From a virus (Duplodnaviria; Heunggongvirae; Uroviricota; Caudoviricetes): a DNA stretch of 7,916 nucleotides. Each line of letters begins with the position of its first letter. Position 1 is the stretch's first letter. The notes beneath the pieces are model-generated. The model did no database searches and was not told the DNA's origin. It saw only the letters and a list, made by a program, of their open reading frames with translations. Of the stretch, positions 11 through 7,421 are shown piece after piece. Where the stretch lies: the IMG/VR virus record IMGVR_UViG_2711768056_000001, positions 1 to 7,916 of that record. One strand, written 5' to 3'. The translations under genes and the position numbers were made by a program.

Positions 11-37
11 AGCCTCGCATTTGCGGGGCTTTTTATT
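11..37 (+). terminator. Rho-independent terminator: 8-bp stem AGCCUCGC/GCGGGGCU (one G-U pair), 4-nt loop, then UUUUUAUU
   Basis: Read directly: agcctcgc-attt-gcggggct followed by a T-run. It lies 18 nt upstream of the ORF starting at 56 and is oriented for the + strand (U-tract 3' of the stem). Confidence 0.7.
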
Positions 38-55
38 GCAACAAAGGTAAAGACG

Positions 56-343
56 ATGGATGAAGAATATCGTAAAGACCTGCAACTGTGGTTTGGTCTT
101 ACGCATGCGCCGTTCTGCGTGATGCCGCGAGTATTCATGGAGGCTATGCCGCCAGAATGGCAAGAGAAGATGGCTCAGTTGCTTTTTGAGTATAGCGACA
201 CAATCAAAACGGATGTCTGCGGAGTTCACAGCTGTTTTGTTACTGCCAAAGACGGCAACAACCGCTTTATGAGGATGCCAGAAGATATTCTGAACTATCG
301 TCATCCCCGACGTGAATTCATCGAATCAGTTCTGAAGAAGTAG
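56..343 (+). CDS. Hypothetical 95-aa protein, candidate accessory (moron-like) gene upstream of the packaging genes
   Basis: ATG-initiated ORF on the same strand as the operon, sitting between two hairpins (11..37 and 352..373). Only a weak AAGG about 9 nt upstream as a ribosome-binding site. No family recognised; contains Cys21/Cys55/Cys60 and His17/His58. Confidence 0.5.
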   Translation: MDEEYRKDLQLWFGLTHAPFCVMPRVFMEAMPPEWQEKMAQLLFEYSDTIKTDVCGVHSCFVTAKDGNNRFMRMPEDILNYRHPRREFIESVLKK

Positions 344-351
344 CCATTACA

Positions 352-373
352 AAGCCCATCTACGGGTGGGCTT
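352..373 (+). other. Perfect 7-bp inverted repeat AAGCCCA(N8)TGGGCTT, 9 nt after the stop of ORF 56..343; hairpin without a clear U-tract
   Basis: Read directly; the two arms are exact reverse complements. The downstream sequence gataatg is not T-rich, so it is not a canonical intrinsic terminator. Confidence 0.4.
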
Positions 374-545
374 GATAATGAAACCGGAATTTATTCTGGG
401 AAACCAGTTACGGCAGTACAGCGAAACAACCCAAGCCAGAAAGTGGGGAAATAACACTGGCAGCCACTGAAAGATGAACCTCCTGCCTTATGGCAAAAAA
501 GATTCTTTGTGGTGGCGGACTGATGGAAAGACATCGGTTATTGCA

Positions 546-568
546 GAGACCATTCAATGAGTGGTCTC
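546..568 (+). other. Perfect 7-bp inverted repeat GAGACCA(N9)TGGTCTC in the non-coding spacer; candidate RNA hairpin or protein-binding palindrome
   Basis: Read directly; exact reverse-complement arms, no U-tract following. Confidence 0.4.
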
Positions 569-637
569 GACAATGGCTTATACCCTACACGGGATAACTT
601 AACTGATATCCCTTTTAACGGATAAACGGAGCCAACA

Positions 638-880
638 ATGGCAGAGATTATTCCCATGACTGAAGAACAGAAATTCCAGTTAGAGATTTACAAACTGGTC
701 ATGAACCAGAACGCAGCCGCAGAAGAAGCATTTCAATTCATTGGCACTGACGAGCTGAAGCTTGAGCTATTCAAAATTCACTTCCAGTCAGGTGGCGCTA
801 ATTCGGATATCACGACCCGCACTATCGAAGCGGTGCGTAAATCGAAGGAAGCGTTAGACCTGTTCACTACCGGAGCATAA
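638..880 (+). CDS. Hypothetical 80-aa protein, predicted helical, immediately upstream of terS
   Basis: ATG with a GGAG ribosome-binding site 6 nt upstream. Its stop (878..880) is 2 nt before the terS ATG, and the terS ribosome-binding site (GGAG 871..874) lies inside its 3' end, suggesting coupled translation. Small conserved ORFs occur at this position in P22-like phages (from memory, unverified). Confidence 0.6.
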   Translation: MAEIIPMTEEQKFQLEIYKLVMNQNAAAEEAFQFIGTDELKLELFKIHFQSGGANSDITTRTIEAVRKSKEALDLFTTGA

Positions 881-4935: not shown

Positions 4936-5025
4936 TTAACCCATAACGTGCAATGGCTGTCTTTATGAGGCCTGGCACCCTATTGCCTTCCGATGGGCTG
5001 AACATCGAGTAAACAGGGGTAACAA

Positions 5026-7191: not shown

Positions 7192-7195
7192 TTTT

Positions 7196-7221
7196 GGTGG
7201 GGCTTCGGCCCCATTTTTATT
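7196..7221 (+). terminator. Rho-independent terminator just 3' of the coat gene: GGGGC-UUCG-GCCCC stem-loop (UUCG tetraloop) followed by UUUUUAUU
   Basis: Read directly: ggtggggc-ttcg-gccccatttttatt, 5 nt after the coat stop codon (7189..7191). Confidence 0.8.
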
Positions 7222-7232
7222 GGGAGAAGACA

Positions 7233-7421
7233 ATGGCACGAACAATGCTCTATAAGCCTGGCAACATGATCACCTGTGGTCAGTTTGCTGTCGATTACGT
7301 CATTGTTGATGACGAAGAAGTTAAATCTCACCTGAAAAAAGGTTGGGTAAAAACTCCTGAAGAAACCGCAACGAAGCAAAAAGTGGCTAAGGCGGAAGAA
7401 GATGGCGAAAACGAAGGGTGA
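7233..7421 (+). CDS. Hypothetical small protein (62 aa) with acidic C-terminus, between coat and gp4-like gene
   Basis: The track ORF 7194..7421 starts at a TTG inside the terminator hairpin. The in-frame ATG at 7233 has a GGGAG ribosome-binding site 6 nt upstream and is the more plausible start. P22 carries a small ORF of similar size at this position (from memory). Confidence 0.55.
   Translation: MARTMLYKPGNMITCGQFAVDYVIVDDEEVKSHLKKGWVKTPEETATKQKVAKAEEDGENEG

Follow-up and report, generated by a model that had tools for sequence, protein, structure and literature searches.

A family of conserved hairpins in a non-coding spacer between the lysis and packaging genes of a tailed phage

The two palindromes in the 294-bp non-coding spacer of this phage DNA are paralogs of a single conserved RNA hairpin family, the members of which were found in prophages across Enterobacterales. 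The spacer is best explained as a modular stretch of non-coding sequence that is transcribed within the Q-dependent late operon of lambdoid phages. The preferred reading, to which a probability of roughly 0.45 was assigned, is that the hairpins are non-terminating RNA stem-loops that punctuate and stabilize the late polycistronic mRNA and that serve incidentally as recombination linkers for accessory genes. The NCBI PGAP annotation had no feature under the best matches, and a literature search found the element undescribed, the known phage sRNAs mapping elsewhere. The element is real and uncatalogued, though probably an ordinary form of mRNA punctuation.

Location and structure of the spacer

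The window, the whole stretch of 7,916 nucleotides that was analyzed, contains the spacer at positions 344-637, exactly the interval given in the preliminary description, between the TAG stop codon (341..343, + strand) of an accessory ORF (56-343) and the start of a DUF2560 gene at 638. The statement that all other gene junctions were overlapping or 0-20 nt long was slightly overstated, since gaps of 90 nt at 4936-5025 and of 42 nt, with a terminator, after the coat gene are also present, but the spacer remains the longest non-coding stretch of the window. The upstream ORF matched phrog_3527 (C-terminal part only) and its stop codon lies 1 nt before the base of hairpin 1. A terminator scan located an intrinsic terminator upstream of this ORF (11..35, + strand), annotated as such in epsilon34, that forms the left edge of the accessory cassette whose end is hairpin 1. 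The first gene 3' of the spacer (638..880, + strand) encodes the DUF2560 protein, a homolog of P22 orf80 (Pfam PF10834, E = 1e-43). The folding energy of the whole spacer was -99.8 kcal/mol, compared with -69.6 kcal/mol for shuffled sequences (z = -5.5).

Both inverted repeats, AAGCCCA(N8)TGGGCTT at 352-373 and GAGACCA(N9)TGGTCTC at 546-568, were exact as first reported, and neither is followed by a U-tract, again as the preliminary description had it; the 3' flanking sequences are GAUAAUGAAAC and GACAAUGGCUU. The hairpins folded with energies of -15.8 and -15.5 kcal/mol (z about -4.5 each), and none of 200 shuffled controls was as stable. They are the two strongest hairpins of the window and also its longest inverted repeats. 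Only seven perfect 7-bp repeats of the hairpin type occur in the entire 7.9-kb window; two such repeats within 294 nt were obtained in 1.1% of 2000 dinucleotide shuffles (mean 0.12).

With G.U pairs included, the stem of hairpin 1 is 9 bp long and closed by a UACG loop, that of hairpin 2 is 10 bp long and closed by a 3-nt loop, and in both cases an outer stem of 4-5 bp lies across a 2x2 internal loop (345-349/376-380 in hairpin 1 and 540-543/571-574 in hairpin 2). Hairpin 1 (345..380, + strand), designated family type a, consists of the lower stem CAUUA/UAAUG, the internal loop CA/GA and the upper stem AAGCCCAUC/GGUGGGCUU. The corresponding elements of hairpin 2 (539..575, + strand), designated type b, are the lower stem (U)AUUG/CAAU(G), the same CA/GA internal loop, the upper stem GAGACCAUUC/GAGUGGUCUC and the loop AAU.

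A strand-specific hairpin family

The plan of the family spans about 36-40 nt and reads CAUUA, CA, a variable 7-10-bp stem, the loop, the second strand of the stem, GA and UAAUG. Both hairpins scored about 62 bits with one shared covariance model, on the + strand only; the values obtained were 62.5-63.1 bits for hairpin 1 (16 bits on the - strand) and 62.9 and 49.6 bits for hairpin 2. Among 36 distinct copies, 96.5% of the cells were paired, six pairs had changed on both sides and the covariation score was matched by none of 500 shuffles. A set of 55 copies from many genera gave 96.8% paired cells and changes on both sides at 11 of 15 pairs; the observed value on any of five measures was reached by none of 500 shuffles, and slid controls paired at 30-52%. 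Pairing was retained through compensatory and wobble changes. The compensatory changes in hairpin 2 were at 543-571, 546-568, 548-566 and 549-565, where A-U, G.U and G-C were all seen, and in hairpin 1 one-sided C-to-U changes preserve G.U pairs. Comparison of HK97, P22 and L showed the series A-U, G.U, G-C at one pair, the changes being non-synonymous in the overlapping ORF.

The pattern of changes points to an RNA of the sense strand. There were 104 G.U cells versus 8 A.C cells, and the wobbles fell almost exclusively on the sense strand of the late operon. The + strand was the more stable in 48 of the 55 copies (mean -18.4 versus -14.2 kcal/mol) and the orientation of the hairpin was always that of the flanking genes. 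A U-tract was sought 3' of the family copies and was found in none of them.

Placement after stop codons and action on the mRNA

In 29 of 69 distinct contexts the hairpin follows, at a distance of 0-6 nt, the end of an ORF of 50 or more codons on the same strand, compared with 3.7% at random positions, the most frequent distance being 1 nt. The spacing from stop codon to hairpin is usually 0-2 nt and recurs across many unrelated contexts, in which the upstream genes include Rz/Rz1 spanins, Rha, DUF2560 and the major tail protein; other copies are flanked by KilA-N, Sf6 gp66 and a pectate-lyase-like gene. The sequence GTAG, the tetranucleotide conserved at the 5' end of REP/BIME elements and here including the stop codon, lies 1 nt before the hairpin in nine of the 29 ORF-adjacent contexts, and the rest have TAA or TGA. 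Hairpin 2 is preceded by a non-coding core, not by an ORF. Genuine terminators lie directly upstream of some family copies.

The whole HK97 genome has two copies, both at this locus and none after the major structural genes, so that in this phage the family is not a general late-operon device. The HK97 annotation places "putative terminators" after several late genes, including those for the major head and major tail proteins, and the one 3' of the major tail gene is without a U-tract.

RNA processing or stability, which the preliminary description listed as one of several possible roles, is the option favored by the covariation, the G.U pairs on the sense strand, the orientation with respect to the genes and the placement after stop codons, and we infer that the hairpins act on the mRNA, by blocking nucleases, by directing processing or through some effect on expression. 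Each unit has one copy at its 3' end: hairpin 1 follows the accessory ORF and hairpin 2 the core. Without a U-tract, the hairpins would let RNA polymerase run on into the essential packaging genes, and they may serve as barriers to 3'-to-5' exonucleases or as landmarks for processing; the stability of the upstream cistron would thereby be fixed irrespective of the downstream sequence. The segment downstream may be capped by a second small hairpin by the ribosome-binding site. The family hairpin, being short and common to many phages, would double as a patch of homology for the exchange of accessory genes, and exchange at this homology would account for the mosaic joints at the edges and apex of the hairpins.

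The closest parallels to such punctuation are the REP/BIME elements of E. coli, likewise imperfect palindromes that are situated shortly after stop codons in intergenic DNA and are transcribed. REP/BIME and the HK97 post-gene hairpins share with the family the sense orientation, the stability (-14 to -20 kcal/mol) and the lack of termination; those after HK97 gp5 and gp12 are a likeness within the same phage group. The REP/BIME sequences are unrelated, however, and number hundreds per chromosome compared with 1-3 per phage here. Unlike REP, the hairpin family conserves its internal loop and lower stem, is confined to prophage late operons and is not known to be associated with a RAYT-type transposase, and a stabilizing role here would be by analogy with those elements.

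Distribution and mosaic joints

The spacer is present at 90-99% identity in about 209 phage records and in 2556 of 5426 complete E. coli genomes (47%), with a median of one place per positive genome. The carriers, which include headful P22-like phages, the cos phage HK97, ES18 and Stx2 phages, have unrelated packaging and virion genes. Each locus has 1-3 copies of the family, and the flanking genes, where identified, are phage genes. The genes found at this site between the lysis and packaging modules include P22 pid, a gene annotated as anti-CRISPR (phage Huey), Rha and homing endonucleases. Homology of the window to other phages begins at 337-345, next to hairpin 1. Gene cassettes are inserted immediately 5' of the hairpin-2 position and, in an Stx2 phage, a single hairpin is fused without interruption to the sequence that lies 3' of hairpin 2. 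This exchange of genes at the palindromes and the paralogy of the two were overlooked in the preliminary description.

Such joints raise the alternative that the palindromes act on the DNA, as linkers or cassette-exchange sites, perhaps through extruded or single-stranded hairpins, and that the folding of the RNA is incidental. We consider this unlikely. The many unrelated genes that end 0-2 nt from a hairpin are in keeping with it, as are the cassettes of one ORF, some with their own terminator, that are each succeeded by a hairpin, the recombinant type-c/type-b chimeras with the crossover in the loop, the presence or absence of the core and hairpin 2 as an exact unit, the internal breakpoints at 535-540 and 558-559, and an Enterobacter prophage in which accessory genes are flanked by three copies. 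The plan of the hairpin also resembles that of integron attC, an imperfect hairpin at the 3' end of a cassette in which the outer pairing is conserved (as in the lower stem here), the inner stem varies and unpaired nucleotides separate the two, and integron arrays similarly hold cassettes of unrelated function in one orientation. However, the attC R''/R' cores, RYYYAAC ... GTTRRRY, were absent as judged by eye, the outer arms here being CATTAC ... GATAATG; no IntI-type integrase was seen in the inspected loci and no dedicated recombinase is associated with the hairpins. In addition, the strand asymmetry, in contrast to attC, matches the transcript. An RNA element would be expected to show the strong excess of G.U over A.C and a constant orientation with respect to transcription, neither of which would be required of a double-stranded recombination site; selection for "evolvability" by itself is a weak means of holding a 40-nt element in half of the E. 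coli genomes; and a copy between the major tail and chaperone genes involves no accessory cassette. Homologous or microhomology recombination adequately accounts for the cassette exchange.

Linker or boundary sequences in lambdoid phages were reportedly proposed by Susskind and Botstein and are said to have been debated by Juhala and colleagues in 2000. The family shares with these linkers the short conserved sequence at gene boundaries where mosaic joints cluster, but it is a structured, strand-specific and covarying hairpin, which suggests that some function of the hairpin itself, and not recombination, is the reason for its maintenance.

Recognition of the lower stem and internal loop

A second alternative is that a specific RNA-binding protein or ribonuclease, such as a translational regulator or an RNase III-type enzyme, uses the hairpins as its operators and reads the lower stem and the CA/GA loop; this we regard as doubtful. 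The sequence AUU-N-CA ... GA-N-AAU and the 2x2 loop are constant where the upper stems differ wholly, including in copies found without a pattern constraint. The search pattern of the genome scan contributes to the apparent lower-stem conservation. Retention of the lower stem and the CA/GA loop while the upper stem drifts argues for sequence-specific recognition by something, and one leader holds two copies. A plain exonuclease barrier requires just a stable stem and leaves the fixed lower stem and CA/GA loop unexplained.

The R-sites of the T7 early mRNA, which likewise separate cistrons of a long phage transcript, have the same succession of upper stem, internal loop and lower stem, and after their cleavage the upstream mRNA retains a protective hairpin at its 3' end. 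The coaxial helix here is shorter, however, at only about 15-17 bp; typical E. coli RNase III substrates are longer. It also differs in its symmetric 2x2 CA/GA loop and has no sequence similarity to the R-sites, and cleavage here would be by analogy with T7, where the design of the RNase III sites between mRNA cistrons was reportedly described by Dunn and Studier in 1983. No phage-encoded candidate for the binding protein was found, the sole neighbor weighed, DUF2560, being a mere 5' fragment in HK97, so that a binding factor would have to come from the host.

Two forms of translational control were also considered and rejected, the first of them as the main function. Coupling through the AUG in the 3' strand of the lower stem would involve only non-conserved frames of 3-48 codons that are out of frame with the downstream genes. 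For programmed readthrough or bypass of the stop codon next to the hairpin, inspection by eye showed neither a conserved extension nor matching take-off and landing codons.

The core and the leader of the DUF2560 gene

The hairpins bound a conserved non-coding core, designated X (381..538, + strand), with predicted helices at 384-399, 435-461, 463-516 and 518-539. The 158-nt core is acquired or lost as one unit with hairpin 2; it is missing from Stx2 phage WGPS6 and from mEp043, and in ES18 it is cut at window position 456. The diversity (pi) was 0.025-0.030 in the core and 0.017 in the leader versus 0.090 at the third codon positions of the adjacent gene, in loci that were picked by a 24-mer from the core.

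The core together with hairpin 2 may be an ncRNA cut from the late transcript, possibly kin to Proteo-phage-1, that acts in trans or as a sponge. This is improbable. The core is non-coding and yet less diverse than the neighboring third codon positions, the two bounding hairpins could set the ends of the molecule, and the cassette at the same site in one locus (L035) holds a curated RNA motif, int-alpA (RF02996). The spacer of the window and those of 20 related loci gave nothing at the gathering score of Rfam 15, only weak matches to Proteo-phage-1, RT-17 and b55, and the match of positions 430-465 to Proteo-phage-1 (RF03044) was 16.8 bits (E = 1.1-3.4), well under the gathering score of 42. 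Proteo-phage-1 RNAs have a conserved 3' tail, GGAAA(A/U)AACACCGGCAGCC, which recurs at 447..465 (+ strand) as the block GGAAAUAACACUGGCAGCC, 18 of 19 positions being identical to the tails of three copies (L241, L242 and L314), a post hoc match that may be due to chance. Local alignment to real Proteo-phage-1 copies, also post hoc, gave a z of about 9 against shuffles. The two internal hairpins of Proteo-phage-1, located between its 5' CCCCAG and its 3' tail, are missing, however, with 6+6 nt in place of 28+26 nt. Proteo-phage-1 is, like the spacer, a non-coding RNA of phage late operons, but in four of five loci, the flanking ORFs of which were assigned by eye, the genuine copies have a putative Q-like regulator gene on one side and holin-like membrane proteins on the other, in high-GC phages, in contrast to the spacer, which lies between lysis and terminase genes. 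Moreover, the core itself carries neither a promoter-like nor a terminator-like signal, its fold was marginal relative to shuffles (z only -1.7), and several phages do without it. No covariation was seen in the core among full-length copies, which are too similar to one another because the core hardly varies.

Of comparably low probability is a dedicated machinery that recognizes the hairpins. It might be an attC-like system of single-strand recombination by which accessory and anti-defence gene cassettes are placed right behind stop codons of late operons, or an RNase or RNA-binding protein of the host for which the CA/GA loop is the signal and which sets the stoichiometry of the late genes, in which case the core might be a diverged relative of Proteo-phage-1 that shares its functional tail.

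The DUF2560 leader (576..637, + strand) contains a Shine-Dalgarno sequence, ACGGAG, at 626-631 and two small, mutually exclusive helices, 591-596/607-612 or 607-611/620-624, the second of which is of the "UAUCC...GGAUA" type. Related hairpins, UAUCCCC-loop-GGGGAUAAA, occur directly after family-1 hairpins in other prophages. The UAUCC...GGAUAAAC hairpin was considered as a mimic of the CRISPR type I-E repeat (an RNA anti-CRISPR) and rejected, as there were five mismatches over the last 14 nt of the repeat in an ungapped comparison made by eye, and the stem of the window copy has only 5 bp and contains A/U pairs. Better copies of UAUCC...GGAUAAAC occur in other loci.

Coding capacity, termination and packaging

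No conserved ORF was found in the spacer. A 9-codon mini-ORF (572-601) begins at the AUG inside hairpin 2, and in relatives, which have indels of 1-2 nt, the same ATG gives 3, 9, 21 or 30 amino acids. The ORFs at 378-470 and 490-597 matched no Pfam or PHROG family, and the minus-strand ORFs of the spacer appear to span positions of indels found in relatives. A small protein was rejected as an explanation because the spacer ORFs have no family and are frameshifted or cut off in relatives.

A decayed gene remnant, as suggested in the preliminary description, or neutral recombination junk is very improbable and largely refuted as an explanation of the spacer. The region is a patchwork of segments, the truncated 5' fragment of DUF2560 just downstream in HK97 indicates that relics do persist there, and the epsilon34 annotation cites a likeness to the N-terminus of ST64T orf118. 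The last of these is artefactual, ST64T "orf118" being an 80-aa DUF2560 homolog with a spurious in-frame N-terminal extension. No frame is conserved and the hairpins covary, the diversity is one third of that at the neighboring third codon positions, and the spacer persists in nearly half of the E. coli genomes.

Intrinsic terminators, or packaging elements of the pac or cos type (the preliminary description had suggested recognition elements near the packaging genes), would fit stable, GC-containing stem-loops that follow genes near those for terminase, but this is the least credible reading, since there is no U-tract, the essential genes downstream require read-through, and the same spacer, in some phages without the core, accompanies the mutually unrelated terminases and differing packaging modes of P22-like phages, HK97, ES18 and Stx2 phages. 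The pac site of P22 and Sf6 is said to lie inside terS, as Wu and colleagues in 2002 and Casjens and colleagues in 2004 reportedly found, and the P22 pac sequence had no match in the window. A consensus-based scan found no promoter-like sites in positions 1-1400 and no + strand terminators in the spacer. A promoter at the GATAAT of the 3' arm was rejected because it has no -35 partner and the scan was negative, and a Fur-box or IHF-like reading of GATAATG/CATTAC because, by eye, the spacing and order are wrong.

Significance

The carriers of the element include about half of the complete E. coli genomes as well as the model phages P22, HK97, Sf6, HK620, ES18 and the Stx2 phages. The hairpins are landmarks for the annotation of moron and other accessory cassettes, and they help to avert false ORF calls such as ST64T orf118, P22 orf25 and small ORFs in phage Dewey. 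If they are mainly recombination joints, they would provide a concrete, testable case of the long-debated lambdoid "linker" sequences. If a dedicated machinery exists, the phage "cassette boundary" that they form, as RNA or DNA, would be a class of element that is new and extends across the Enterobacterales. If, as the preferred reading has it, they stabilize or process the late mRNA, they would give access to the means by which temperate phages adjust the expression of accessory genes that lie between the lysis and packaging modules.

The spacer and its two palindromes

The phage is P22-like (Lederbergvirus-type), and the window corresponds to its late region. An intrinsic terminator (11-35) and an accessory ORF (56-343) matching only the C-terminal part of phrog_3527 were followed, after a gap at 344-637, by a DUF2560/P22-orf80 homologue (638-880), terS (883-1323), terL (1320-2735) and then the portal, scaffold and coat genes, which were assigned from position and size. 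In relatives, the holin, endolysin and Rz/Rz1 genes lay directly upstream of the matching region. The 95-aa product of the accessory ORF aligned to no more of the phrog_3527 profile (233 positions) than 139-230 and may be a truncated or domain-only form of a longer phage protein.

The preliminary description had put the gap at 294 bp, with two exact 7-bp inverted repeats and no U-tract after either; the size was exact, the repeats were found at 352-373 and 546-568, and no U-tract followed them. Its figure of 0-20 nt for the junctions elsewhere was slightly overstated, since a 90-nt non-coding gap (4936-5025) separated the portal and scaffold genes and the gap 3' of the coat gene (7192-7233) held a canonical terminator-like hairpin (GGGGCTTCGGCCCC + TTTTTATT) before a small ORF starting at 7234.

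The palindromes were the longest inverted repeats of the 7.9-kb window, and dinucleotide shuffling of the spacer produced two such repeats in only 1.1% of cases. Fold energies were compared with shuffled controls, as had been proposed, and hairpin 1 (345-380) and hairpin 2 (539-575) both folded at about -15.5 kcal/mol (z = -4.5), which none of 200 shuffles equalled. Counting G.U pairs, one stem had 9 bp with a UACG loop and the other 10 bp with an AAU loop, each with an outer stem of 4-5 bp beyond a 2x2 internal loop. The entire spacer folded at -99.8 kcal/mol, as against -69.6 when shuffled (z = -5.5); this excess came mostly from the hairpins, since the core between them (381-538) gave only z = -1.7 when folded alone. 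No promoter or + strand terminator was called in the spacer.

One hairpin family

Both palindromes are copies of one element. Alignment of the two hairpins gave the common reading (C/U)AUU-N-CA-[stem]-loop-[stem']-GA-N-AAU(G), and the sequences of hairpins 1 and 2 were designated types a and b. In phages with an inserted gene, a third sequence type (c) occupied the hairpin-2 position, and more types occurred elsewhere. With a covariance model made from 36 distinct copies, both window hairpins scored about 62 bits on the + strand, as against 16-20 on the - strand, and no further match was present within the window. In the 36-copy alignment, 96.5% of cells were paired and six pairs were changed on both sides; the covariation score was 0.40 compared with 0.24 for shuffled alignments (0/500), and slid controls were paired at 32-52%. 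Pair 549-565 of hairpin 2 was A-U, G.U or G-C according to the phage, and three other pairs showed a joint switch from G-C to A-U. Substitutions in HK97, P22 and L were wobble or compensatory changes for the helix and mostly non-synonymous in the overlapping frame.

A scan of the Enterobacterales, one genome per species, with the exact pattern CATTACAAAG-N10-26-CTTGATAATG yielded about 45 matches that folded at -13 kcal/mol or better and had diverse upper stems, together with non-folding chance matches. The genera with folding copies included Enterobacter, Leclercia, Kluyvera, Pantoea, Serratia, Budvicia, Morganella, Xenorhabdus and Siccibacter. In a model-guided alignment of 55 distinct copies, which was fitted to the model and in which the scan pattern itself fixes the outer 10+10 nt, 96.8% of cells were paired, 11 of 15 pairs were changed on both sides, and none of 500 shuffles attained the observed value on any of five measures. 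Copies free of the pattern (type b, type c and those at loci L169:156-196 and L139:3549-3583) retained the CA/GA loop and the AUU...AAU ends; another, at L056:8751-8790, retained the ends, with AU in place of GA. In Siccibacter colletis (L207, 5565-5630), the 3' half of the hairpin (GTTACGGTCGCCCTTGATAATG) was tandemly duplicated directly after a complete hairpin.

G.U cells outnumbered A.C cells by 104 to 8, and the + strand folded better in 48 of the 55 copies. This asymmetry, and the fact that the hairpins always had the same orientation as the flanking genes, suggest that the element functions as the sense-strand transcript.

Placement after stop codons

An ORF of 50 or more codons on the same strand ended 0-6 nt 5' of the hairpin in 29 of 69 distinct upstream contexts, with a mode of 1 nt, while 3.7% of random positions in the same loci had an ORF end that close. 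The upstream genes were mutually unrelated and included those for Rz and Rz1 spanins, Rha-type regulators, DUF2560 proteins and several of unknown function; Sf6 gp66 (Gp49 family) ended 1 nt 5' of a hairpin. Other copies were flanked by KilA-N and pectate-lyase-like genes, and in Xenorhabdus a hairpin lay between the major tail protein gene and the following tail gene. Matching ORFs of 248-250 aa, which were compared as ORFs and not searched against families, occupied the same upstream place in Morganella, Siccibacter and one further Enterobacterales genome, and Serratia had a 5'-truncated copy there. In one Siccibacter prophage the hairpin followed a canonical terminator, 16 nt upstream of the terS start codon, and in one Enterobacter prophage the accessory genes that separate the lysis module from the terminase module were bracketed by three hairpins. 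Complete HK97 had only two family copies, both at the spacer locus, where an unannotated ORF (L216, ~38400-38660) ending ...RRRKRAEAKAKAK stopped 1 nt before hairpin 1.

The adjacent stop was TAG in 9 of the 29 contexts, always as GTAG exactly 1 nt 5' of the hairpin, compared with a TAG share of about 13% among the long ORFs of these loci, an uncertain enrichment in that some of the cases are one and the same gene.

The spacer is non-coding

The frame from ATG 378 encoded 3, 9, 21 or 30 residues depending on the phage, and every variant in the 9-residue frame from ATG 572 was non-synonymous. Indels of 1-2 nt were present in the spacers of P22, HF4s and HK97, and neither small ORF had a Pfam or PHROGs match. 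The likeness of the spacer to the N-terminus of ST64T orf118, recorded in the epsilon34 annotation, was rejected as evidence for a gene: orf118 is an 80-aa DUF2560 homologue (MAEITALTELQQ...) whose frame a 45-nt deletion has connected to an ATG further upstream, within the spacer, making the likeness an annotation artefact. In ST64T/L (phage L cII-101: L005, 1648-2004; window 490-597), orf118 was annotated 38 codons too long at its upstream side, through the spacer. False calls of this sort probably also account for P22 orf25 and for two small ORFs of phage Dewey. In HK97 (38956-39053), the first ~85 nt of the DUF2560 gene persist as a fragment directly before gp74.

Core and leader

Among 90 distinct sequences, the core had a nucleotide diversity of 0.025-0.030 and the leader (576-637) one of 0.017; the adjacent DUF2560 gene had 0.090, 0.025 and 0.011 at codon positions 3, 1 and 2. 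The low diversity of core and leader suggests purifying selection, in a sample where most loci were fetched by an exact 24-mer of the core. No covariation was visible in the core, the full-length copies being too similar.

Positions 447-465 matched, at 18 of 19 nt, the 3' tail that is conserved in Proteo-phage-1 RNAs. The Rfam match was only 16.8 bits (E ~1) and both hairpins of the motif were absent, making the likeness a lead, not membership. Putative Proteo-phage-1 RNAs were fetched by the tail pattern from high-GC IMG/VR phages (L238, L241, L249 and L253) and grouped by similarity. At four of five high-GC loci with flanking ORFs listed, they were flanked, by eye, by a putative Q-like regulator gene on one side and holin-like membrane proteins on the other. 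They follow a terminator in the position of a late-operon leader, suggesting a role like that of lambda 6S RNA or an antitermination RNA.

Two helices, 591-596/607-612 and 607-611/620-624, can form in the leader but exclude each other. The second is one of the recurrent UAUCC(CC)-loop-(GG)GGAUA-AA hairpins, which in other prophages lay directly 3' of a family hairpin and 5' of the Shine-Dalgarno sequence. This second small family, followed by AAA and a Shine-Dalgarno sequence, was seen at window 607-624, L156 (reverse complement, 1136), L129 (2039), L132, L211 and L213. Its best copies (GCGGGGAUAAA) were similar to the type I-E CRISPR repeat in the 3' half of the latter; the copy in the window is far weaker. 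An anti-CRISPR-annotated gene is present at the spacer locus of phage Huey.

Spread and mosaic joints

About 209 phage records matched the spacer at 90-99% identity by BLAST. The carriers included P22-like podophages (P22, Sf6, HK620, CUS-3, epsilon34 and L/ST64T), HK97-like siphophages (HK97, HK140 and mEp234/235), ES18 and Stx2 phages, groups whose terminases and virion genes are unrelated. Of 5426 complete E. coli genomes, 2556 had the whole spacer or part of it, with no annotation under the best matches. Sub-segments were also found apart, and gene insertions occurred at recurrent points.

Homology to other phages began at 337-345 regardless of the upstream sequence. Internal breakpoints were clustered at 535-540, just 5' of hairpin 2, and at 558-559, its apex, with others at 393/403, 408-410, 589 and 626. 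The inserted units consisted of an ORF, at times with its own terminator, with a hairpin copy at the end, and included Sf6 gp66, a DUF551 gene, which an int-alpA RNA motif precedes, and the gene of a trypsin-like peptidase. One locus had a chimeric hairpin with a type-c left arm and a type-b right arm. In Stx2 phage WGPS6, a single type-a hairpin was fused straight to the sequence 3' of hairpin 2 in the window, and consequently the core and hairpin 2 (381-574) were taken as a unit gained or lost.

The int-alpA motif (RF02996; L035, 2722-2784; 45.1 bits, gathering score 35.8) stands first in a cassette whose insertion point lies just 5' of the hairpin-2 position; since the DUF551 gene and a terminator come next, int-alpA may be a 5' leader of DUF551 genes. 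The 246-aa trypsin-like peptidase (PF13365; L057, 9668-10408), with its own terminator, forms a cassette at the hairpin-2 position and is possible defence or anti-defence cargo. After the terminator at 11-35, window 26-48 reads ATTGCAACAAAGG, similar to the T-tract and 5' arm (TTTATTGCC-ATCACAAAAGCC) preceding type-c hairpins (model R1, 9.6 bits, E = 0.7); the left edge of the ORF 56-343 cassette may carry a relic half-hairpin here.

Proposed role of the hairpins

The best-supported reading is that the hairpins are non-terminating stem-loops at cistron ends in late mRNA. In this model, all functional steps of which we infer, they would act as a barrier to 3'-to-5' decay or as a processing landmark, and the hairpin beside the ribosome-binding site would cap the downstream segment. 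Several observations fit an mRNA stem-loop, 1) the strand asymmetry and the placement after stop codons, 2) the absence of a U-tract in an operon that needs read-through to terS, 3) the true terminators directly upstream in some cassettes and 4) the hairpin after the major tail gene. HK97 supports it as well, with annotated hairpins after the major head and major tail genes, one of them lacking a U-tract.

An mRNA stem-loop as such leaves the retention of the lower stem and CA/GA loop unexplained, and a specific reader, either a host RNase or an RNA-binding protein, is for this reason a serious variant. The coincidence of hairpins with mosaic joints is real; we read it as a consequence, in that recombinants survive where gene ends have a 40-nt sequence in common. 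A primary role at the DNA level is less probable.

Searches of the published literature gave no description of the element, which is also absent from Rfam and unannotated where E. coli genomes match best. It holds up as a real and conserved feature with structural support, and most likely falls into the well-known class of intercistronic mRNA hairpins, with a side-role as cassette boundary.
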